A model generated the notes under the pieces. The model saw only the letters and a list, made by a program, of their open reading frames with translations, made no database searches and was not told the origin of the DNA. A stretch of DNA of 64,000 bases from a virus. Where the stretch lies: positions 1 to 64,000 of the IMG/VR virus record IMGVR_UViG_3300029362_000001, one strand, 5' to 3'. Both the position numbers and the translations under genes were made by a program. Shown piece by piece: positions 2,901-34,000 of the stretch (its first letter is position 1; the number at the start of each line of letters is the position of its first letter).

Positions 2901-3706
2901 TATTAAAAACGACAACCAACGAGTTTTGTTTCATTAACGTAAGTTTCTACGAAACAATAGCAGATCCTCGTCATTTCTTTGAACAGGATTATGAAGAGAT
3001 GCCAGAATATGAGGAGGAATCGGATTTTGATTTTGATTCTTATTACAATAAGTTTATTCCTTTTGTACAGGAATGGGCGAATGAGGTAAGTGAACGCCTT
3101 TACGGATATGGCGTGAATAGTATAAAGGTAACATCGGTCGGATATCCGAAAGAATATAATTATGGTACTGATTGGATGAACGTAGAGGTAGAGTTTTGTG
3201 ATGAATGGAGGCAAAAGATGTTATCTAACATTAGTAAGATTGTCAATGATGATAAATGCAAGAAGTATGCGGAGACTAATTACCGGTCGGTATCAGGATA
3301 CATCTTTTTAGGGCCTGAAGATTTAAAGGAATTTGAAAAGGAAATAATAGAAAGAAAGTCGGATTCCGGATATGATGTAACAATATTATTAAATATGTAT
3401 CTAACTTTGGCTTTTGTAAAAGAATTTGGATTTAAAGCCGGAGAAGCATGGAGTGAAATAACAGAATATGCTTACGGATGTTTATCGTATTCCGATTTTG
3501 CAACAACAGAGATGCTTATACCGGAAGGTTCGGAGCATTTATTCAAAGACATTTACACGGCAAAGGCCGACGAATTATATCATCATGTCCTGGATAAATT
3601 CGGATGGGCGTGGCGTGATCCGAAATATAAGTCAGAAACAGAATTATGCGCGATGCTAAAGTGGGCAAAAGAAAAAGGCTTGACCATTGAAGAGTTAAGT
3701 ATTTAA
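2897..3706 (+). CDS. Hypothetical protein (269 aa), acidic N-terminus
   Basis: Long ORF; ATGA overlap with the upstream gene. Confidence 0.6.
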   Translation: MILKTTTNEFCFINVSFYETIADPRHFFEQDYEEMPEYEEESDFDFDSYYNKFIPFVQEWANEVSERLYGYGVNSIKVTSVGYPKEYNYGTDWMNVEVEFCDEWRQKMLSNISKIVNDDKCKKYAETNYRSVSGYIFLGPEDLKEFEKEIIERKSDSGYDVTILLNMYLTLAFVKEFGFKAGEAWSEITEYAYGCLSYSDFATTEMLIPEGSEHLFKDIYTAKADELYHHVLDKFGWAWRDPKYKSETELCAMLKWAKEKGLTIEELSI

Positions 3707-3769
3707 TTGTTAAACATAAGGCAGTAGTGGTGCGTGAGTATAGGTGCTGCCGTTAAAATATTTTATAAG

Positions 3770-4018
3770 ATGAAAAAAGAAGAGATTCAAACTATTTTAT
3801 ACACAATCAAAGAAGGAGACAGTATTAAAATCAAAGTACAAGACAAAAGTGAAGAGATAAGACTGCGGGATCATGTAAGAAGAGTACAGAAATACGGATA
3901 CAGGTTTTGTTTGTCTCATTTACATGATGGAATTTTCTATCTGGAGAAGTTGAAAGAAGGGGATAAGGATAAATACTATAGAGTAATAAACAGAGGAAAT
4001 GGAAAGACCGGAGTATAA
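3770..4018 (+). CDS. Hypothetical protein (82 aa)
   Basis: Internal ATG (M13) of track ORF 3734..4018, which starts on GTG. Confidence 0.45.
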   Translation: MKKEEIQTILYTIKEGDSIKIKVQDKSEEIRLRDHVRRVQKYGYRFCLSHLHDGIFYLEKLKEGDKDKYYRVINRGNGKTGV

Positions 4019-4242
4019 TAAGCTACGCAAAATGGCTAAGACTACTCCAGGTCTGATAGTGGACGAGGTGCAAAACATGATGCGTGTATCGCTATACGAT
4101 AATGGGGAACTTAAGAAGGTGGTAGTAGTAATGAAATGCGATTCTTTTTTACAGTCAAAAAGTAACATAGAAAAGATAATGTTATTATCATCTTCTATAG
4201 AAGATAGAAAAAACAAAGAAAAAAATAAAACAAAATCAGAAA

Positions 4243-4626
4243 ATGAACAGAATAACAAAAATAAGAGAAGAAATAGGAGGAAAACAGGTTGATTTGACCT
4301 TTTACGGGCGCTTTTGCAGCCTTATCGAAGGTGATAGGAAGATAATACTAAGGGCAATAAAAAACGGTCGTAAAAAAGGCGTAATCGGAGCCATTCAGCC
4401 TGGGAGACATGATAGAATTTGGACCACATGGTCTATTGCTTTTGATGATCTGAAGGTAGGGGATACGGTAGAGTTCAGTACATCTGGAAAATACAATCCC
4501 GGATTTCATTCTACAGAAAAGTATGTAGGGTGTGTAGAATGGATAAAAGGATCGGAATGTGCGATAAAAACAGGTAAGGGGATGGCAGTAGTATTAATTA
4601 AACACATAGAAAGGGTAGTAAAATAA
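4243..4626 (+). CDS. Hypothetical protein (127 aa)
   Basis: ATG start; ATGA-type overlap with the downstream gene. Confidence 0.5.
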   Translation: MNRITKIREEIGGKQVDLTFYGRFCSLIEGDRKIILRAIKNGRKKGVIGAIQPGRHDRIWTTWSIAFDDLKVGDTVEFSTSGKYNPGFHSTEKYVGCVEWIKGSECAIKTGKGMAVVLIKHIERVVK

Positions 4627-4907
4627 TGGATTTAAGGATGTTTATAGACCTATTTCAGGAGATTGAGGTAGAAAACTTGTTTAAAGCGTTAGATTTATGT
4701 ATGGAATATGTAAGATTAGATTTACATGTGTTTAATGTAGGAGCTCATGTAACGTGTTCATACAGCAATGATCTTGAATCTCTTTCACAGGCAGAAGGTT
4801 GTAATGTGAATATGATAATAGAGGTACCCTACTTATTCGAAGCATTCATGGAATATGCTTCACCGGAAATGAAGTTGTATTATGAAAAACTAACAGAGAT
4901 AGTATAA
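4626..4907 (+). CDS. Hypothetical protein (93 aa)
   Basis: ORF in the operon-like array. Confidence 0.5.
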   Translation: MDLRMFIDLFQEIEVENLFKALDLCMEYVRLDLHVFNVGAHVTCSYSNDLESLSQAEGCNVNMIIEVPYLFEAFMEYASPEMKLYYEKLTEIV

Positions 4908-4908
4908 T

Positions 4909-5382
4909 ATGAAAGAAGAAGTAGAACGGATAAAGAAGTTGGTAGGCATAGATCATAACAGATGGGAGCAACCTTGTACATGTGATAAATGTAAAAACAT
5001 GTGTAAAGTTCCTTGTATTGGTACGCCAAAAGACATAGAGGCTATCATAGATGCCGGATACGCTGACAGGTTAAAAGAAACAATGTGGATGGTAGGGTAT
5101 CTTGCAGTGAAAGAAAAACCAATAGCGATGATCCAGCCAACAGAGAAAGACGGGTGGTGCGCATTCCGCCAGCCGGGCGGTCTCTGCGAGCTGCATGACC
5201 TCGGACTAAAGCCGACTGAAGGAGTTCTGGCTTCTTGTAAGGTGGTTGAAGAAGACGATATTCCGACATACGAAACATCCGTACTTAGAGCAGTAGCTCA
5301 CGAGTGGGTTAAGGTGGAGAACTTTGGAAATGTAATGAAGGTCGTTTTTAAATTTTTGCATGAAAATGAACGTAGAAAATAA
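4909..5382 (+). CDS. Hypothetical Cys-rich protein (157 aa); contains a local GC-rich patch
   Basis: CTCDKCKNMCKVPC cluster; the GC-rich island at about 5140-5230 is unusual for this genome. Confidence 0.5.
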   Translation: MKEEVERIKKLVGIDHNRWEQPCTCDKCKNMCKVPCIGTPKDIEAIIDAGYADRLKETMWMVGYLAVKEKPIAMIQPTEKDGWCAFRQPGGLCELHDLGLKPTEGVLASCKVVEEDDIPTYETSVLRAVAHEWVKVENFGNVMKVVFKFLHENERRK

Positions 5383-17987: not shown

Positions 17988-18701
17988 ATGTACATCAATT
18001 TCAGACAACTTGCAGCATCAGACATGACTCCTAATGATCTTGCCAATCTTCTTGCCATAAGACAGAAGGATTCGGTTATGATCGAAGCCATGCCGGAAGA
18101 AGATGCTGGGAGGTATATAGAGCTTGGCCTGGTTGAGAAATTAAAATCAGGCGTGATGAGATTGACCAACAAGGGAACGTCTTTTGTGAATTATATAGAG
18201 ACACCGGAAATGACAGACGAGGTTCTGGAAACGTTGAAGATTATGATAGGAATGTACGAATCATATTCAAAAGACATAGGTGTCAGCAGAAAAGAAGCAG
18301 AATCCAGATTGTGTTGGTTTATGGGTAACACCTCATTCAAGAAAGAGGTCATACTTCAGGTAACGGAATCTTATATAGCAGAGTCAGGAGATTATACAAT
18401 GAGCTTATGTAACTTCATATGGAAACCGCCTTCTCAGACTTTTTCAGTTCATATGAACCTTAAAAATTCAAAGCTCTTTGACTTAATAGCTGAAAAATTT
18501 AAGATCGCTACCGAGCCTTATTTGGAGTCTAAGAAGAATAAGGAAATGGATTGGTTGTTTGCCGTATCTAAATTGCCTACGCCTCCGGCTAAAGGCAATC
18601 CGGATTATTTGTTTACCGGAAGTTCTGAAACAGACAAAGAGCGATTGAAAAACATAAAAACGTATTTATTTAACAAAATTAGAAAGCAATGGAAAAAGTA
18701 A
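17988..18701 (+). CDS. Hypothetical protein (237 aa)
   Basis: ATG start. Confidence 0.55.
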   Translation: MYINFRQLAASDMTPNDLANLLAIRQKDSVMIEAMPEEDAGRYIELGLVEKLKSGVMRLTNKGTSFVNYIETPEMTDEVLETLKIMIGMYESYSKDIGVSRKEAESRLCWFMGNTSFKKEVILQVTESYIAESGDYTMSLCNFIWKPPSQTFSVHMNLKNSKLFDLIAEKFKIATEPYLESKKNKEMDWLFAVSKLPTPPAKGNPDYLFTGSSETDKERLKNIKTYLFNKIRKQWKK

Positions 18702-18940
18702 GAATCAGAAAGATAATAGAGGATATAATTATTACTCAGTTTCTTAATTCGGAAATAGATATAATTCATGAAGAAGATGTGACGTTTAAAGAACTTGGAT
18801 TAGATTCTGTTGATCAAATTGAACTGGAAGTGATGGTGGAACAAAAATTCAATATTGTTATTATTGATTATGATATGGAGACCATCAAAGATATGACTGA
18901 TCTTGTTTACAAAATAATAACAGAAGGGTATGGGAAGTGA
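18689..18940 (+). CDS. Acyl carrier protein homologue (83 aa)
   Basis: FKELGLDSVDQIELEVMVEQKFNI matches the ACP phosphopantetheine-attachment motif (LGxDSLD ... ELVMxxEEEF); the size is typical of ACPs. Confidence 0.6.
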   Translation: MEKVRIRKIIEDIIITQFLNSEIDIIHEEDVTFKELGLDSVDQIELEVMVEQKFNIVIIDYDMETIKDMTDLVYKIITEGYGK

Positions 18941-19424
18941 CATAATTTTATGCATGGCTTTAATAGCGTCATTTGCTTTTGTTATACAGTTTTTGTTGTC
19001 GATATTAGGATCTGATCTGGATACGGATATTGACATTGACAGTGCTTCTGATTTAAGCATGTCTTTGTCGGATATCATATCATTCAAGGGCATAACACAT
19101 TTTATTCTTGGATATAGCTGGACTACCTACTTTTCGGGTTCCCATTTAGTAGGGGTTGTGATAGGGTCGTTTTTCTTTATCGTTTTGTTTTACGTATATA
19201 AGTTACTTCTTAAGTTAAAGCAAGAAATGGTATACGAATGTCCGGAAGATTTAAATGGAAGAGAAGTGGAGATAGTGTTTAGATCAGGGAAGAATCATTA
19301 TATGGTAAATATTTCAAAAAATGGAAGACAGGAGCAAATGAGAGTAAGATGCTTGTCTGGAAAAACCTACAAAAACGGTGACAAGGTGAATATAAAATAT
19401 GAAGAAGGAGAATTAGGTATCTAA
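18930..19424 (+). CDS. NfeD-like membrane protein (N-terminal TM helices plus C-terminal OB-fold-like beta domain)
   Basis: Two or three hydrophobic helices, then REVEIVFRSG ... VRCLSGKTYKNGDKVNIKYEEGE. It sits immediately upstream of an SPFH gene, the classic nfeD-flotillin pairing. Confidence 0.45.
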   Translation: MGSDIILCMALIASFAFVIQFLLSILGSDLDTDIDIDSASDLSMSLSDIISFKGITHFILGYSWTTYFSGSHLVGVVIGSFFFIVLFYVYKLLLKLKQEMVYECPEDLNGREVEIVFRSGKNHYMVNISKNGRQEQMRVRCLSGKTYKNGDKVNIKYEEGELGI

Positions 19425-19455
19425 TTTTTTTATCAACAATTAAATTTTAAAAGTT

Positions 19456-21156
19456 ATGACAACAATCATGTACGTGTCAGCTATCTTAGCTGTAGTGATT
19501 ATTTTGACAATCATCGGAGTCTTATCAAGGTATCGTAGATGTAAGCCTAATCAGGTCTTGGTCGTTTATGGTAAGACAGGTGGGGAAAAGAAATCGGCGA
19601 AATTATATCATGGTGGAGCGGCATTTGTCTTGCCTATTATTCAAAGCTATGATGTTTTGTCAATGGAGCCTATGCAAATAGATTGCAAGCTTACCGGTGC
19701 TTTATCATCTCAGAATATTAGAGTAGATGTACCTACGACCATTACAGTAGCTATCAGTACAAATCCCGAAATCATGCAAAATGCGGCAGAAAGACTTTTG
19801 GAGATGGATACCGAATCTACTGAAAATCTTATTACGGACATTGTTTACGGTCAGATGCGTTTGATTATTGCTGAAATGACAATCGAAAAACTTAATTCTG
19901 ACAGGGATGAGTTTTTGGATAAGGCAAGAAAGAACATTGACAACGAGCTTAACAAGTTAGGTCTTTACCTCCTGAACATCAACATCAGTGACATCAGAGA
20001 CGAAGCTGGTTATATTATGAACCTTGGTAAGGAGGCTGAAAGTAGGGCTCTGAACGAGGCACAGGCTAATATCGAAGAACAGGAGAAGCTGGGTGCTATT
20101 AAGATTGCTGTACAGCAGAAGGAGAAAGAAACGGCTGTGGCTAATACCAAAAAAGAGCAAGAGATTCAAATTGCTTGTACTGAAAAAGAAAAGGAAACGA
20201 TAGTAGCTGAAACGAAGAAAGAAAAAGAAATAGCCTTGGCTTTAACCGATAAAGAAAAACAGATCGGCGTAGCTCAAGCAGATAGAGACAGGGCTGCGGT
20301 TATCGCAAAAACTTTAACCGACAAGGAATCGGCGATTGTAAGATCTAAGGCAGAACTTGAAGTAAATAAAGCCGAGGCTGAAAGGATGGAAGAAGTCGGA
20401 AAGAATAAGGCTGAAGCTGACAAGGAAGCAGCTATAGCAATACAAGACTCTGAAGCTCAGATTAAGAAGGCTGAGGCTGAGAAAAATGCGTCTATAGGAT
20501 ACAACAATGCCCAGAAGGAGGTTGCTGTGTCAGTATCAGAACTACAGATCATCAAAGCTCAATCAGAGAAGAAGGCCGGAGAAGAAAAAGTTAAATCGGA
20601 AGCGGCTGTAAAAACAGCAAAAGAGCTTGCCGACAAAGAAGTGGAAGAAGCTAAGGCTAAGAAAGTTCAGGCTGCGCTTAAGGCTGAAAAGATTGTGCCG
20701 GCTGAAACCCAGAAGGAAGAGGCTATATTACAAGCTGATGCTGAGGCAGAGAAGATCAAACGCCGGGCTGAGGCAGAGGCAGCAGCACATTTGGCAAAAG
20801 CTGAGGCGGAGGCAAAAGCTATTCAGATGAAGCTGGAGGCAGAAGCCGAAGGTAAGAAAAAATCGTTGATGGCAGAAGCCGACGGATTTAAGGCTATGGT
20901 GGAAGCAGCAGAATCCAATCCTCAGATCGCCATCCAGTACAAGATGGTTAATCAGTGGAAAGAAATTGCCGGAGAACAGGTTAAGGCATTTGAGCACATT
21001 AACCTCGGAAATATCACGGTATTTGACGGCGGTCAGAACAGTACCGGTAATTTCCTTAACAATGTTGTCAAGACCGTCGCTCCGGCATTGGGAGTCATTG
21101 ATCAGCTTCCGATTGCAGATACTTTAAAGAAGTTAAAGGGAGATGACAAAAAATAA
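19456..21156 (+). CDS. SPFH/band-7 flotillin-like protein (566 aa) with an N-terminal TM helix and a long Ala/Glu/Lys-rich coiled coil
   Basis: N-terminal membrane anchor; SPFH-like region (VLVVYGKTGG ... GGAAFVLPIIQSYDVLSMEP); the extended EA-repeat coiled coil typical of flotillin/YqiK. Confidence 0.6.
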   Translation: MTTIMYVSAILAVVIILTIIGVLSRYRRCKPNQVLVVYGKTGGEKKSAKLYHGGAAFVLPIIQSYDVLSMEPMQIDCKLTGALSSQNIRVDVPTTITVAISTNPEIMQNAAERLLEMDTESTENLITDIVYGQMRLIIAEMTIEKLNSDRDEFLDKARKNIDNELNKLGLYLLNINISDIRDEAGYIMNLGKEAESRALNEAQANIEEQEKLGAIKIAVQQKEKETAVANTKKEQEIQIACTEKEKETIVAETKKEKEIALALTDKEKQIGVAQADRDRAAVIAKTLTDKESAIVRSKAELEVNKAEAERMEEVGKNKAEADKEAAIAIQDSEAQIKKAEAEKNASIGYNNAQKEVAVSVSELQIIKAQSEKKAGEEKVKSEAAVKTAKELADKEVEEAKAKKVQAALKAEKIVPAETQKEEAILQADAEAEKIKRRAEAEAAAHLAKAEAEAKAIQMKLEAEAEGKKKSLMAEADGFKAMVEAAESNPQIAIQYKMVNQWKEIAGEQVKAFEHINLGNITVFDGGQNSTGNFLNNVVKTVAPALGVIDQLPIADTLKKLKGDDKK

Positions 21157-21165
21157 ATACAATGG

Positions 21166-21187
21166 CCCAAGGTTACACTTGGGCCTA
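21166..21187 (+). terminator. Hairpin GGCCCAAG-gttaca-CTTGGGCC downstream of the flotillin gene
   Basis: 8-bp GC-rich perfect stem; no long T tract follows, so terminator function is uncertain. Confidence 0.35.
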
Positions 21188-21373
21188 ATTGAAGAAATAA
21201 AAGCAGCATTCATAGATTTCCTGCCGGCTGGGATAGTGCTTTTAAGTGCTTTACTAATTACGATATTTTTAACATGGATTTTGGACAAGATTTAGAACCA
21301 GAAGAACTGACCAAGCATTATGATCAGTGTTATGGAATTGATTTTGAAACAGAAGAAGAGGAGGATGAAGAGT

Positions 21374-26531: not shown

Positions 26532-27077
26532 ATGGACGATATTATTATTAAAAAAGGAACCGATGTAGTTCTTAACAGAGATCTTAATGTTCGTGAAGTA
26601 ACAGTAGCCAGAAAAGGACTTAAGGTTGCATGTGAAAAGGATATCAAAAAAGGAGATACAGAAGTTACACTGTCATACGAAGGTCGTATGGAGTTCGATG
26701 TACCAGTTGAATATATATCTAAGAGTGATAATACTCTTTTTGAAAATAAAGAAAGTAAGTCGGTAAAGAATGACATCATTGACGACAAACTACGATGGGA
26801 TTTGCTTCCAATGGAAGAGATTGAGGATATTGTAAGAGTCTATCATGCTGGTGCAAAGAAGTACGGACCCAATAAATGGCAGAACCTTGACAACGGGTTT
26901 GAACGGTATCGTGCTGCGGCTGCCAGACACCTAATGGAATACATGAAAGGGGAAAGAATAGACTCAGATACAGGAGCTTTTCATCTTGCACAATGTGCAT
27001 GGAATTGTATAGCTATGCTGTGGTATGATAAGCACGGGAAAGGATTAATACCATTAAATAAGGAGGAAAAGAAATGA
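26532..27077 (+). CDS. dATP/dGTP pyrophosphohydrolase-like (phage dNTP diphosphohydrolase N-domain-like) protein
   Basis: The block LRWDLLPMEEIEDIVRVYHAGAKKYGPNKWQN ... RYRAAAARHLMEYMKGERIDSDTGAFHLAQCAWNCIAMLWY matches the conserved pattern of this phage domain family. Confidence 0.4.
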   Translation: MDDIIIKKGTDVVLNRDLNVREVTVARKGLKVACEKDIKKGDTEVTLSYEGRMEFDVPVEYISKSDNTLFENKESKSVKNDIIDDKLRWDLLPMEEIEDIVRVYHAGAKKYGPNKWQNLDNGFERYRAAAARHLMEYMKGERIDSDTGAFHLAQCAWNCIAMLWYDKHGKGLIPLNKEEKK

Positions 27078-27988: not shown

Positions 27989-29179
27989 ATGAGATTAGTT
28001 GAAAGGCATATAGTTAAAGACAACCGGTTTGAGGATATTTGCTTCAAATCCGGCTTGTTATATAATTATGTTCTTTACAACATTCGTCAAGGAATCTTTT
28101 CAGGTAACTATTTAAAGGAATTTGATTTATCAAACAAACTTTGCAAAGAAAACCAATTCGATTTCAGGAATTTACCTAATCATGTATCCCAACAGGTGAT
28201 TAAACAGGTATTTAAAAACATAAAATCCTGGATAAAACTCAAGAAGGATTTTGAAAAGAATCCTTCTAAATACGGAAATCATAGACCTCACCTTCCATCA
28301 TACAAACAAGGTAAGAAACAAAACATGGTTGTTTTCACCAACTGCAATTGTAGGGTAAAGGGTGATAATTGTATTTATTTTGTTAAAGATATAATCAAAC
28401 CTATCAAAACAAATGTAAAGAAAGACGAACTAAAACAAGTTAGAATAATCCCTCAAGCTACATGTTATGTAGTAGAGGTAGTTTATGAAAGAAAGGAAAC
28501 TGATCTTGGTTTAAACAAAGACAATTTTCTTTCGATTGATTTAGGATTGAATAATTTATGTTCATGTATTAGTAATGTAGAAACTAATTCTTTCATTATA
28601 AACGGACGGGTTATGAAATCAGTAAATCAGTGGTACAATAAGAAGAAAGCTAAGTTGATGTCTTTTGTTGGTAATAAGGGAACTTCAAATAGAATAAGAA
28701 AAATTACTTTGTTTAGAAATTGTTGGATAGAAGACAAATTGCATAAAATCAGTAGATACATTGTAGACTTTTGTAAATCTAACAATATAGGAACAATCAT
28801 CATTGGATTAAACAAAGAATGGAAAAACGAGATAAATATCGGTAAAAGGAATAACCAACATTTTGTTTCTATTCCTCATTCTAAATTGATTGATAAGATT
28901 GTTTACAAAGCAAATCTTTTAGGGATAGAGGTAATTACTCATGAGGAATCTTACACATCAAAGATTGACCATCTTGCTTTTGAACCTCTAAAGAAACAAG
29001 AATCCTATTTAGGGAAAAGAAAGAAACGTGGATTATTCCAAAGTTCCGTTGGAAAGCTAATTAATGCTGATATTAATGGAGCTATAGGAATAGCAAGAAA
29101 AGTAGTCGGTGATTCTTTCATTGGAAAGATAATCGATAGTGGATTTGTGTTTAATCCGGTTAGAATAAATATTTTGTGA
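27989..29179 (+). CDS. tnpB: TnpB-like (IS200/IS605 OrfB family) RNA-guided-nuclease homologue, 396 aa, with a degenerate C-terminal zinc finger and an apparent E-to-G change at RuvC-II
   Basis: RuvC-I SIDLGLNNL (D184) and RuvC-III NADINGAIGIARK (D361) are present. The expected hhhED RuvC-II block reads TIIIGLN (G273). The canonical YTSQxCSxCG ... FxCxxCG zinc finger is replaced by YTSKIDHLAFEP ... FQSSVG, with all four Cys lost. No IS-end hairpins lie upstream, and only 16 nt separate the stop from the next ATG. Confidence 0.75.
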   Translation: MRLVERHIVKDNRFEDICFKSGLLYNYVLYNIRQGIFSGNYLKEFDLSNKLCKENQFDFRNLPNHVSQQVIKQVFKNIKSWIKLKKDFEKNPSKYGNHRPHLPSYKQGKKQNMVVFTNCNCRVKGDNCIYFVKDIIKPIKTNVKKDELKQVRIIPQATCYVVEVVYERKETDLGLNKDNFLSIDLGLNNLCSCISNVETNSFIINGRVMKSVNQWYNKKKAKLMSFVGNKGTSNRIRKITLFRNCWIEDKLHKISRYIVDFCKSNNIGTIIIGLNKEWKNEINIGKRNNQHFVSIPHSKLIDKIVYKANLLGIEVITHEESYTSKIDHLAFEPLKKQESYLGKRKKRGLFQSSVGKLINADINGAIGIARKVVGDSFIGKIIDSGFVFNPVRINIL

Positions 29180-29933: not shown

Positions 29934-30121
29934 ATTATTTGGATGGGTATGTAGAAGAAGTTCTTTCTGAGCCGTACTATGATGATTATGGCTCTGGGAT
30001 TTTTAGGTGGTGGGTGGAAGTATCTTACATTTGTGAAGGTACAGAATCAACTACTACATTAATGTTTGATACGAGAGAAGAAGCAGAGGCAGTAAAACCA
30101 GGTTATAAATTTTTATGTTGA
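29930..30121 (+). CDS. Hypothetical small protein (63 aa)
   Basis: SD aaggaggagc; ATGA overlap with the upstream gene. Confidence 0.45.
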   Translation: MNYLDGYVEEVLSEPYYDDYGSGIFRWWVEVSYICEGTESTTTLMFDTREEAEAVKPGYKFLC

Positions 30122-30128
30122 AAATAAC

Positions 30129-30365
30129 ATGAGGTATTTTGTTTTATTGATGGCACTTGTGTTATCATCATGTTCGCATGATGATAGTCAGGTTAATAAC
30201 GGATGGGTTATATATGATTTACGTCCTTTAGAAGATGGATGTATAATGTATTATGGTGAAGACGAAAGAATTTCAATATTTTATAATAATAGGCTTATAA
30301 AATTCGTTGGATACCAAGGGGAATACAATATAGGAGATTCTATTAAAATCGTAAAAGTGAAATAA
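30129..30365 (+). CDS. Small lipoprotein (signal peptide plus lipobox LSSC)
   Basis: Begins MRYFVLLMALVLSSCSHDD. Confidence 0.5.
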   Translation: MRYFVLLMALVLSSCSHDDSQVNNGWVIYDLRPLEDGCIMYYGEDERISIFYNNRLIKFVGYQGEYNIGDSIKIVKVK

Positions 30366-30366
30366 T

Positions 30367-30855
30367 ATGAAAAATAATTTGAAACTCGTATGTCCAAAAT
30401 GTGGCACCCCTCACCAGCCTCATTCTCCGCACACGATGGATGCAGATGGATTTGAAAGGTGTGAGATAAGAACGGTCATGGAAGACAGGGGATGGTGCTA
30501 CGAATGCTCTTTTTGGCAAAATATGTACGACAAGCACAAAGACGATCCTGGATGGGTTAGGATAGACGGTAAAAGCTGGGTGCTTAAGCCTATGGTGAAA
30601 AACGTACCGAGCGGATGGAACAGCCTTGGATGCGGTGGAAGAAAGATGTATATCAATATCGAAGGGAAAGGCATTGTTGTATCAAATAACTGCTGGTGCC
30701 AAGGTGATGTTTCGGACGCATTTAAGGATCTGATGCCTGATAATGCTACCTGGGCTACGAAGGAGGAATTTGACAAAGCTCCTGTAGTAGGATATATCAT
30801 AGAAGGTATTGGTTTAGTTTTCACAGATAGGGAAGGTCATGAAGTTAATGCTTAG
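30367..30855 (+). CDS. Hypothetical zinc-ribbon protein (162 aa)
   Basis: CPKCG ... H ... C ... C motifs. Confidence 0.5.
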   Translation: MKNNLKLVCPKCGTPHQPHSPHTMDADGFERCEIRTVMEDRGWCYECSFWQNMYDKHKDDPGWVRIDGKSWVLKPMVKNVPSGWNSLGCGGRKMYINIEGKGIVVSNNCWCQGDVSDAFKDLMPDNATWATKEEFDKAPVVGYIIEGIGLVFTDREGHEVNA

Positions 30856-30896
30856 AGACTTAGGTAATTATATACCTTTTTTTCATAACAAAAGAA

Positions 30897-30930
30897 ACCG
30901 GTTCTCTATCATCTCTGACTGAGAACCGGT
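30897..30930. terminator. Bidirectional hairpin terminator between the convergent + and - gene blocks (ACCGGTTCTC ... GAGAACCGGT, 10-bp stem)
   Basis: Perfect 10-bp inverted repeat in the 210-bp convergent intergenic region, flanked by A/T runs. Confidence 0.6.
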
Positions 30931-31066
30931 AGGAAAACAATTTCAGAAAAAATTAAACCTACATAATCTTTCAAGTAAGAACAAAAAACGTACAATCTAC
31001 TCTTTGACGATGCTAATATAACATATTGGAATCATACAAAAACAATGCAAGTCCGATATTCTTCGT

Positions 31067-34000
31067 CTACTTGTAGCTAACATCATCGTCCCCTTCCGAA
31101 TCAGGAGTAGCGCCGATGAAGAACATCATTGACTTGTTGTTCGTCTGCTGCCACCAATTATAGGCGCGCGCTACGTCTTCCGGCGTCTTGATATTATACC
31201 ATTGTTTGATAAACGTCTGTTTGGCGAGTTGCCTAAATAACTTAGACTCTCCCTTGTATGTACCGGATGTTACTTTATCAAGTGAATAATTCCTAAGATC
31301 GGTAAGATCCTTCAGTTTTCGCCCCATAACAAACGGATCGTTAATGATATCTACCACGTTAAGCTCCATAATAAACGGCATCTGTGAAGCTATTTCGTTT
31401 ATGGTTCTGAATCCGACATAGGATCCAAATTGAGTAAGCCAACTTTCTTCGTTTTCATCATCATCACGCCATCCGGCAAGAAGCATAGATACGGCCTGCA
31501 TGATAAGGAACGTGCCGGCATAGACACTGAGACGTTTGAGATTGGTTTTTTCTACCTCATTCATATTGTCTTTATTTTCATTCCAGGCATCTATGATGTT
31601 TTTCATACCAGACTCGGAAGCCAGGCTAAATGTTTTGGCTATCATATTCTTTAACGTAATTGACAACCCTTCCTCTTCTTGCATTGTCTGGAAATTGAAG
31701 CCACGTCTTTTCCACAGACGTTGAGCCGACAGCACCAACCATCCTCGGTGGGCGGTCATGAACCTGGCTATCCAGTTGCGCGATGCGGCAGTTCGGTTTT
31801 CTTCATTCAAAGATCCGTTGCATATCTGCGACAAGCTACGAACTTGATTTCTGGTTATAGCCATCTGGGTTTCTACTTCCTCAACAGTAACACCCGATCC
31901 TGGCTTTACAACCACCTTCCCATCCACGACGTCTACCATACTCCATAAAGTACGATCTTTTAATGCGTTCCATTCTCTTTTTATGGTACTCTGTTCTTTA
32001 TTGCGTTCTTTTTCCATCTTGAAATCTTGGAACGTGTAGAACCGGCCTTTGTAATAACGAACATTGTCCATAGTAGCAATCATAACCTGCGGATCAAGAG
32101 GGTAGTTCAGGATTTCCATAAAAGCATACATAGGCGAACGCATTAAGGTCCTGGCCGCTCTATTGTATCCGGCACCATACATACGATTTCGGATATTGAA
32201 TATCCCCATTCTCTCACCTATGACATATAATTTGCTTTTCCTATCTATGTCTCCGGTTTCTGCTATACAAGATGGCGCAAGACGTGAAAACTCAGCCGAT
32301 GCGTATTTAAGGGAGTCTTTGCTTATATACTGTCCTACGGCAGATTCCATGATGAGGTTGATATGACCTGTCAGGGCGCCGGTAGCTGCCACAAACGGAG
32401 ACAGTGCCAGGTTCATAACCGACATAAATCTTTCAACAGCCATCATAATTCTTGTAAGGTCTACCGTATATCCTCCGATGTTCACCGTAAGTTTTTTGGT
32501 GTTCATCCTAATGCCATAATAATGATCGTTGAAGAAGTCCCTGAACATCTGATATGCTTGGGTTGCTTCAGCCTTCTTACCGCCTTCAAATTGTTTATTC
32601 AGTAACATCTGCTCCAGTCCTTGGGCAAGCTCTATAGACTTCTGCTTTTCGTTATATAACGATGACTGCATCATAAGCATCGAATAAGAGTAGCCAAAAT
32701 CGTGAGATACATCATCTTGGTTCTCCAACTCATATATGTAGTATTTAGGTATAGACCTAAGTCTGTCTTCCGGATCATATACTTCCCCTTGCCTGGTCTT
32801 ACCATATAGAGAATCGTCTACTCTGTCCAGGCACAGATCTGATACAAAATTACGAACCGTATTTTTGAAGTTAATACCCAATCCTTCTACACGTTCTATG
32901 TCTTGTTTTGATATCTGTGGAATAGCATACAGATTAGGACTCTGCTCTTTGTATAGATCAAGCGATTGTCTTTTTATTTCCTTGAGTTTTTGAATCATAT
33001 TCCACTGCTCTACGTTTTTAGTAGCAACTTCATTACCGTCAGCATCATACTTGATACCAAAGTCATTGAAATACGATTCATCACGATACAGGCTTTTCTT
33101 AGGCATTCGATGACCATACCCATGATCTTTTACATAATCAGGATTACGGCCGCTATTTTCGGCTTCAGATTCAGCCACCCATGCCCTTGCAGGATCGAAA
33201 GACAGGTACGATATGTCCATGCCATAATCTTGGGTGGATGTACCGTTTTGTACGTCCTTAACCATCTGCGCCACATCTATCTCACCTCGACCTATTTTGT
33301 CGATCATGGCCGCATATCCGGTAGGCGCCATGCGTTTATAGTACGAAAAGACCTGGCTCCTGGCAAATTCATTAACAATAGCATTGGTCTCTTCTATGCC
33401 CTCTTCTCTTGTATTATTTAAAAACAAGCTGGCCATCTTAGCATTAACAGCATTCCTGAAATCTCTACCGTCTAATTCTTTGCTTATACCAAGCTTTTCT
33501 GACAGGTAGTTGGTTTCAGATACGGTAAACAGATATCGGTTATCAGCAGCCTTAAACAGCTTATCCCTTAAAGCCTGAATCCTTTTTGCTTTCTTCGCCG
33601 TAGTATGACGTTGTACGAACTTCCATTCCACTTCCTTGGAGTCAGCAAGAGCATTTAAATAAGACTGATTTACTTCGTTTTCGGCCTTACTGCTTTTAGT
33701 AAGGTACTTATCAATATCTTCAAGACCCACCATCTTAGCATAATCTATTAAGATAGCGTAATCAGCTTCAATAGCTTCAGATGCGGCCCTAAAAGCATCT
33801 CTTTCAGATGAGGTAAATGTCGCTTCGTTAATTTCTCCGATATCAGCCACATCTCGGTTGTTTCCGATTATTTCCTTGATAATGGCCTTATTTTTTTCTA
33901 TATCTTTCACAATCGAATCCACGTCAGTCGCATCTCTATCACTTGTCGTAGAACTAATGATATCATGCGCCATTTTAAGATACGAAGCCTTGTTATTTGA

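Follow-up and report, generated by a model that had tools for sequence, protein, structure and literature searches.

The window analyzed here is a 64,000-nucleotide stretch of a virus genome (IMG/VR record IMGVR_UViG_3300029362_000001, positions 1 to 64,000) that contains three consecutive genes encoding an acyl carrier protein (ACP), an NfeD-like membrane protein, and a flotillin. The verdict of our analysis is that these genes do not make up a functional trio: the NfeD-like protein and the flotillin are a real host-derived accessory membrane-scaffold pair, and the ACP is an orphan independent of them. The best explanation, to which we assign a probability of about 0.6, is that the NfeD-like/flotillin pair was captured from the host and would give the phage a conditional benefit, the ACP being separate. 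An earlier note on this DNA, based on its letters alone, had placed the three plus-strand open reading frames (ORFs) exactly and had recognized their phage context, both of which we confirmed; its suggestion that the three genes act as one unit was not supported.

The window belongs to a strain of crAssE-Sib, an epsilon crAss-like phage that is very abundant in the human gut, and shares 97.7% nucleotide identity with the 151-kb genome OR575929.1. In the GenBank record of OR575929.1 the three genes are labeled "acyl carrier protein," "transmembrane protein," and "flotillin family protein." The paper describing the crAssE-Sib genome (Viruses 2024;16:513, PMC11054128) contains zero occurrences of "flotillin," "acyl carrier," or "membrane," and a literature search found no publication pairing "flotillin" with "crAss-like." The genes are previously undiscussed members of known families and not a new kind of system.

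Identification of the flotillin and its NfeD-like partner

The product of the last of the three genes had been called a flotillin-like SPFH protein, and profile hidden Markov model (HMM) searches agreed. Band_7 (PF01145) matched residues 30 to 211 with an E value of 7.9e-26, and Flot (PF15975) matched residues 450 to 559 with an E value of 2.1e-9. The translation has hydrophobic residues at positions 5 to 27 and a stretch rich in Glu, Ala, and Lys at approximately 200 to 450. The NCBIfam FloT model (NF058507) also matched (E = 1.1e-40), but the score of 140 bits lies far below the equivalog cutoff of 700, and the protein is therefore not a FloT ortholog. Its sequence places it with the Bacteroidaceae-type members of the flotillin family rather than with the FloT equivalogs. 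Flotillin length ranges from 404 to 659 amino acids (aa) among alleles and hosts, as the Glu/Ala/Lys-rich coiled coil has gained and lost in-frame segments; the DNA that encodes this coiled coil showed no regular repeat in Tandem Repeats Finder.

The middle gene had been described as encoding an NfeD-like protein, and here the outcome was divided. The Pfam test failed on the protein itself: PF01957 (NfeD) gave no match at E ≤ 1, nothing in Pfam, PHROG, NCBIfam, or PADLOC matched, and searches of the PDB with phmmer and a small profile returned only noise. Support for the name came from the fold, the family profile, and the operon. An exhaustive profile search gathered a family of 881 representatives at 50% identity, from which 84 full-length members were used as a profile. 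Only 2 of these 84 matched PF01957 (best E = 6e-5). When the profile was compared with 177,635 PDB sequences, the top match was the OB domain of YuaF (2k14), at a marginal E value of 0.0089. A viral homolog that is 36% identical to the protein carries the UniProt name "NfeD-like C-terminal domain-containing protein," and the partner in Bacteroides xylanisolvens is named in one source [quoted passage not shown] which is the wording of COG1585 (NfeD).

The AlphaFold2 model (mean predicted local distance difference test score [pLDDT] of 76, with 83 to 89 in the C-terminal domain) agreed with the architecture proposed in the earlier note. Three transmembrane (TM) helices make up the N-terminal part of the model, the acidic loop is disordered, and the C-terminal part is a five-stranded OB-like β-barrel that resembles the solved C-terminal domains of NfeD proteins. 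The best Foldseek match of the full-length model in the PDB was YbbJ from the Escherichia coli QmcA-YbbJ complex, a weak match (E = 0.022; TM-score, 0.29 to 0.32). On the grounds of fold, architecture, and operon position, we count the middle protein among the short, YuaF-type NfeD proteins, as a divergent member, despite the failure with PF01957 and with the modest margins given above. An acidic DxDxD loop (D-x-D-x-D-x-D) lies between the first and second TM helices and is followed by a nearly invariant S-F-K-G..H-F..G motif; both are conserved across the 84 representatives, which share at most 50% identity. No Pfam model describes the acidic-loop region of this family. The loop might bind cations.

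A Bacteroidaceae operon as the source of the pair

An NfeD-like gene and a flotillin gene are adjacent and in the same order in 29 of 29 Bacteroidales chromosomal loci, most of them from Bacteroides or Phocaeicola. The upstream partner in these loci is approximately 165 aa long and 32 to 42% identical to the phage NfeD-like protein, and the chromosomal pair is flanked by housekeeping genes. The phage flotillin is 62 to 66% identical overall to the chromosomal flotillins of Bacteroides and Phocaeicola, and 77 to 81% identical to Bacteroides-type flotillins when the SPFH and Flot domains are compared. In a neighbor-joining tree, the two phage flotillins form one clade among Bacteroidaceae sequences. 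Based on the identity of the flotillins, the adjacent homologous pairs, and the position in the tree, we conclude that the pair is a two-gene operon of a Bacteroidaceae host that was captured by an ancestor of the phage lineage.

The ACP gene is not part of the cellular arrangement. Within approximately 6 kb at 31 cellular loci, an ACP profile matched none of 3,180 ORFs, although it recovered the phage ACPs as a positive control. The neighbors labeled by Pfam included no ACP either.

Table 1. Features of the window discussed in the text
Feature	Position in window	Strand	Description
Orphan acyl carrier protein	18689–18940	+	83 aa, net charge about −11; Ser40 in LGLDSV; PF00550
Ser40 codon of the ACP	18806–18808	+	TCT; CCT (Pro), TTT (Phe), or TAT (Tyr) in variants
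Divergent short NfeD-like (YuaF/NfeD2-type) membrane protein	18930–19424	+	164 aa; TM at about 2–26, 52–69, and 72–99; OB-like β-barrel at 112–163
Acidic loop of the NfeD-like protein	19017–19070	+	Residues 29–47
Commonest deletion (type A)	19428–21267		Flotillin and most of a small overlapping ORF (21143–21295) cleanly missing
Flotillin	19456–21156	+	566 aa; membrane anchor, SPFH/Band_7, Glu/Ala/Lys-rich coiled coil, Flot domain
Extra segment in some genomes	21331–21333		About 360 nucleotides, just downstream of the flotillin
MazZ-like protein	26532–27077	+	dATP/dGTP diphosphohydrolase N-terminal domain (PF18909)
TnpB-like ORF	27989–29179	+	396 aa
Flip of GC skew	~30000–32000		Positive to negative, near 31 kb

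The flotillin is constrained but recurrently lost

To obtain an unbiased sample, we anchored 101 IMG/VR contigs on the upstream gene and picked them regardless of the state of the three genes. Of these contigs, 65 have an intact flotillin, 26 have lost the gene by deletion, and 10 have a truncated version, so that approximately one-third carry no working copy. The deletions have at least seven different junctions. In the commonest, type A, window position 19427/19429 is joined to 21265/21268 (in at least nine loci), and the junction lies at an A/T-rich microhomology just past the stop codon of the NfeD-like gene. At least six other types of deletion or replacement occur. The NfeD-like gene, in contrast, is intact in 98 of the 101 contigs, with a ratio of nonsynonymous to synonymous polymorphism (pN/pS) of 0.058. 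Because this gene is kept where the phage flotillin has been deleted, its product may be able to work with something besides the phage flotillin, most obviously a flotillin of the host.

Intact flotillin alleles are strongly constrained (pN/pS of 0.040). The constraint extends over longer times, as seen in a sister species of phage in which the three genes are syntenic with those of the window species. The proteins of the two species are 82% (flotillin), 63% (NfeD-like), and 38% (ACP) identical, synonymous divergence (dS) is saturated, and nonsynonymous divergence (dN) is 0.12 for the flotillin, 0.27 for the NfeD-like gene, and 0.58 for the ACP, compared with 0.147 for the replicative helicase DnaB. 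Long-term constraint like that on the replicative helicase, together with recurrent loss at present, is characteristic of accessory genes on which selection is conditional or fluctuates. The co-conservation that the earlier note would have expected is thus found as gene order in two species, but not within the species, given the missing or broken flotillins described above.

Eight nonsense events were found in approximately 48,800 codons of the ACP and flotillin genes, whereas there were none in approximately 132,500 codons of seven neighboring genes. We considered and rejected stop-codon recoding as an explanation of the in-frame TAG codons in the flotillin. The stops in the ACP are TAA or TGA, the codons of the seven neighboring genes include no in-frame stop, no suppressor tRNA is present in the complete relative, and CAG is the commoner Gln codon. 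The site of the flotillin also varies in other ways. Some genomes (four of the loci, for example) have an extra segment just downstream of the gene (Table 1), and in three flotillin-less loci a segment of approximately 425 nucleotides (nt) lies between the flanks at the flotillin's place.

The ACP as a probably separate, weakly constrained gene

The ACP assignment was upheld: PF00550 scored 27.0 bits, above the gathering threshold of 20.8 (E = 5.5e-6). The protein also matched phrog_5934, "acyl carrier protein" (E = 1.7e-8), and 65 type II ACP sequences in the PDB at E ≤ 0.01. All scores against the NCBIfam ACP models were far below the equivalog cutoffs, which indicates that it is not an AcpP ortholog. 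Ser40 aligns with the attachment serine of E. coli AcpP, Ser36 in the DSL motif. The phosphopantetheine-site motif is intact in the window, as had been pointed out, although the serine is not fixed across the lineage. It is replaced by Pro, Phe, or Tyr in 20 of 123 distinct ACP variants, through single codon changes (Table 1) that occur in several sequence backgrounds, in many samples, and on long contigs of up to 151 kb. The loci with replacements are among those numbered L125 to L136 in our collection, in each of which the ACP is at positions 3501 to 3752. These replacements come from metagenome contigs other than the IMG/VR sample, in which all 94 intact ACPs (94/94) keep the serine.

Constraint on the ACP is weak (population pN/pS of 0.40). 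Polymorphic states are nonsynonymous and synonymous in a ratio of 41:16, versus 38:69 and 51:90 in neighboring genes. The open frame, the match to the ACP HMM, and the DSL motif are nonetheless kept in both phage species at 38% identity. The variable sites of high frequency (40, 41, 45, and 48) cluster in helix II. Diversifying selection aimed at this helix was tested and rejected, as the nonsynonymous/synonymous ratio shows no difference between codons 39 to 49 and the remaining codons (Fisher p = 1), and relaxed constraint over the whole gene is therefore the safer reading. Targeting by a diversity-generating retroelement was also rejected, by reasoning only: the changes in the serine codon are not adenine-specific.

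The earlier note had proposed looking for a phosphopantetheinyl transferase (PPTase) or acyltransferase elsewhere in the genome. None was found. The annotation of the 151-kb genome OR575929.1 and Pfam scans of 70 of its hypothetical coding sequences and of 18 ORFs specific to the window revealed no PPTase, acyltransferase, ligase, ketosynthase, or thioesterase. We also considered whether the 237-aa protein encoded upstream might be a hidden PPTase or acyltransferase, and rejected this: it gave no signal in Pfam, PHROG, or the PDB beyond a weak hint of a winged helix, and its AlphaFold2 model (pLDDT of 40.7) was unusable. Should the ACP serve as a carrier, it would have to rely on AcpS and enzymes of the host. 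We conclude that the ACP is most likely an orphan that is specific to the phage, is under weak constraint, and has no part in the flotillin module.

Possible role of the pair and alternative explanations

Cellular pairs of SPFH and NfeD proteins suggest by analogy what the captured pair may do; the models are the QmcA-YbbJ cage, FloA-NfeD, and FloT-YuaF. NfeD proteins have been proposed to promote the oligomerization of SPFH proteins (PMC13086221). As summarized in that article, the QmcA-YbbJ cage consists of 26 heterodimers (PDB 8Z5G; Tan et al. 2024), and FloA-NfeD of Staphylococcus aureus stabilizes unfolded proteins under stress. In the phage, the pair would be expressed together with the flanking replication genes on the same strand. 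The flotillin would form oligomers at the inner membrane of the host, as an attached cage or microdomain, and the NfeD-like protein, anchored by its three TM helices, would bind the flotillin and promote its assembly via the OB domain. During a long infection this could make the membrane and its protein complexes steadier, or it could modulate membrane proteolysis. The phage might gain from a stabilized membrane or stabilized complexes, from control over a protease in the membrane, from keeping out other phages, or from counter-defense. Any such benefit would be conditional, since the flotillin is constrained where present yet deleted or truncated in approximately one-third of wild genomes.

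Several observations weigh against this explanation. The frequent loss of the flotillin could mean that it is nearly useless instead of conditionally useful, and the contigs from IMG/VR are samples that are not wholly independent of one another. That genomes without the flotillin keep the NfeD-like gene fits poorly with a strict two-protein machine and suggests another partner, such as a host flotillin, or another role. The synteny comparison covers two species. Finally, the ACP has stayed beside the pair in those two species although their synonymous sites are saturated, so that a link keeps some probability. This synteny also speaks for a functional trio, in which the ACP, the NfeD-like protein, and the flotillin would act together, for example if the ACP delivered acyl groups to the lipids or proteins of a microdomain built by the phage. 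The three genes are adjacent and overlapping, and the flotillin is disrupted or deleted in 5 of 6 contigs whose ACP has Pro in place of Ser40. Overlaps, however, are the rule throughout this block; the ACP gene overlaps the NfeD-like gene by 11 nt and the unrelated gene upstream by 13 nt. The association with Ser→Pro may be clonal, as two of the loci share the same break, and the flotillin is intact in 5 of 6 contigs with Ser→Phe. Moreover, the ACP is never present in the cellular source operon, no enzyme for it to work with was found in the phage by the annotation and scans described above, and it evolves approximately 5-fold faster than the flotillin. In the unbiased sample, ACP and flotillin losses are independent: the joint table of ACP state by flotillin state (60/34/5/2) is without association. 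For these reasons we consider a single unit unlikely, by a narrow margin the least likely of the explanations considered.

It is also unlikely, if not to the same degree, that the cassette and the ACP are hitchhiking morons that bring no current benefit and are being lost. This would fit the 36 of 101 genomes in which at least seven events have deleted or truncated the flotillin, the truncation of the ACP in 7 of the 101, the loss of its active-site serine in further alleles, the confinement of nonsense mutations to these two genes, and the close to neutral pattern of polymorphism in the ACP. A neutral gene, however, would not survive across saturated dS, and the flotillin has done so with a dN lower than that of the replicative helicase and with strong constraint on its intact alleles. 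The NfeD-like gene is also intact in nearly all genomes and constrained, and even the ACP has kept its frame and motif between species. Decay is most plausible for the ACP alone.

Conflict with hosts or other phages offers a different reason for strong constraint combined with recurrent loss, a pattern typical of conflict and accessory genes. The pair might act in superinfection exclusion, in counter-defense against membrane-disrupting abortive-infection effectors, or in the choice between lysis and lysogeny through an FtsH-like protease, and fluctuating selection would keep the polymorphism. Among SPFH proteins, HflK/C are regulators of FtsH and lambda CII, and the flotillins of Bacillus subtilis are interaction partners of FtsH. 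A Tad2-like (Thoeris anti-defense 2-like) domain is encoded by the closest GenBank relative, and a repressor and anti-repressors occur in Epsilonunoviruses, which are suspected to be temperate (PMC11054128). We nevertheless consider this role quite unlikely. The idea is entirely inferential, the flanks of the block are replication genes with no defense or anti-defense genes among them, and PADLOC-DB gave zero matches for the three proteins and insignificant matches for two flanking proteins (E = 0.01 to 0.015). Somewhat less improbable, but still doubtful, is a wider version in which the stolen pair is a conditional device for host takeover or conflict, acting by upkeep of the Bacteroides inner membrane and its complexes during a prolonged or persistent infection or when membrane-targeting abortive-infection effectors fire, or by retuning an FtsH-type protease that sets lysis versus lysogeny. 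The NfeD-like protein would plug into a cage of host flotillin, and the ACP, rather than being a carrier, would stay apo-like and regulate the lipid enzymes of the host or act as a decoy for them. A place in the host cage would explain why the NfeD-like gene is retained when the phage flotillin is deleted, and a non-carrier role would explain the circulating ACP alleles that lack the active-site serine.

A captured host pair with a conditional benefit, next to a separate ACP, remains the explanation that we prefer. It would make this locus a clean case of a membrane-scaffold operon taken from a host, and one that can be dated. As strains with and without the flotillin circulate together in public metagenomes, they amount to a natural presence/absence experiment, and the phage pair could help to address the function of bacterial flotillins and NfeD proteins. 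The host-derived pair also provides independent support for a Bacteroides-type host of the uncultured epsilon crAss-like phages. If the pair merely duplicates a housekeeping function of the host, it would be an ordinary auxiliary gene set.

Comparison with cellular and phage relatives

The phage pair most resembles the chromosomal pairs of Bacteroides and Phocaeicola, such as those of B. xylanisolvens XB1A (CBK68331.1 and its neighbor) and P. vulgatus ATCC 8482. Gene order and spacing are alike, and the chromosomal partner shares the architecture of TM helices, acidic loop, and OB domain. The phage copy differs in being set amid replication genes, in having an ACP in front, and in being present in some strains and absent from others. 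Similarity to yuaF(nfeD2)-floT(yuaG) of B. subtilis and yqiJ-yqiK of E. coli is marginal; PF01957 is not matched, and the FloT score is 140 bits versus a cutoff of 700. The QmcA-YbbJ complex of E. coli (8Z5G) contains the top Foldseek match in the PDB and may serve as a mechanistic template, with NfeD within or under an SPFH cage. QmcA, however, is an SPFH protein of the stomatin type and not a flotillin, and the structural match is weak.

The earlier note held that SPFH proteins are uncommon in phages. This is overstated for the superfamily as a whole: SPFH/Band-7 genes have been reported since 2006 in the T4-like phages 44RR, Aeh1, and RB43 (PMC1524935), Vi01-like phages carry them as well (PMC10892097), and phrog_200 is a family of phage SPFH proteins. 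For full-length flotillins the statement is fair, as only 11 of 50,697 phage records matched. The other phage SPFH and flotillin proteins (phrog_200, those of T4-like and Vi01-like phages, and those of KIT04 and MT835492.1) are at most 31% identical to the flotillin of the window, represent independent acquisitions, and include none shown to be host-derived as a pair.

Two of these phages carry genes that resemble parts of the crAss-like locus. The T5-like Vibrio phage KIT04 (LC487410.1; positions 3680 to 5350 of our locus L122) has an annotated flotillin of 473 aa that is 29% identical. The gene immediately upstream encodes an 82-aa protein with three TM helices and an acidic DLDD loop, which resembles the membrane part of NfeD but differs from our NfeD-like protein in being without the OB domain. 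The 121-kb human fecal phage scaffold MT835492.1 (positions 2929 to 4482 of locus L216) encodes a flotillin-like protein of 517 aa with a TM helix, an SPFH domain, and a Glu/Ala-rich coiled coil; unlike the gene in the window, it has no NfeD-like neighbor. Its presence indicates that gut phages have captured flotillins more than once.

The ACP, for its part, is like other phage ACPs (phrog_5934; gp186 of Vi01-like phages) in that it is small and acidic, binds phosphopantetheine by family, stands alone, and comes from a large phage without an evident pathway for it. It is unlike the phrog_5934 proteins in that its active-site serine varies within the population and truncations of its gene are frequent.

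Genomic setting

The replication genes that flank the three-gene block lie on the same strand. The strains represented by the window and OR575929.1 belong to the same species and are mosaic, with a linear match of coordinates only from approximately 13.5 to 25 kb. The mosaic structure is illustrated by a C5 cytosine methyltransferase in OR575929.1 in the neighborhood where the window has a TnpB-like ORF (Table 1), which was assigned by ORF size to Pfam matches to OrfB_IS605 and the Cas12f1-like TNB domain. A DUF2829 protein is encoded at 100391 to 101146 of OR575929.1 (positions 391 to 1146 of locus L120), and its gene is missing from the window strain; it is probably the source of the Tad2-like Pfam match, which came from a batch scan (E = 8.7e-13).

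Farther along the window, the MazZ-like protein matches PF18909 with an E value of 4.6e-26, which hints at a pathway for a non-canonical nucleotide or for DNA modification; no PurZ-like partner was noticed in the annotation. The flip of GC skew coincides with the change from early and replication genes on the plus strand to genes on the minus strand.

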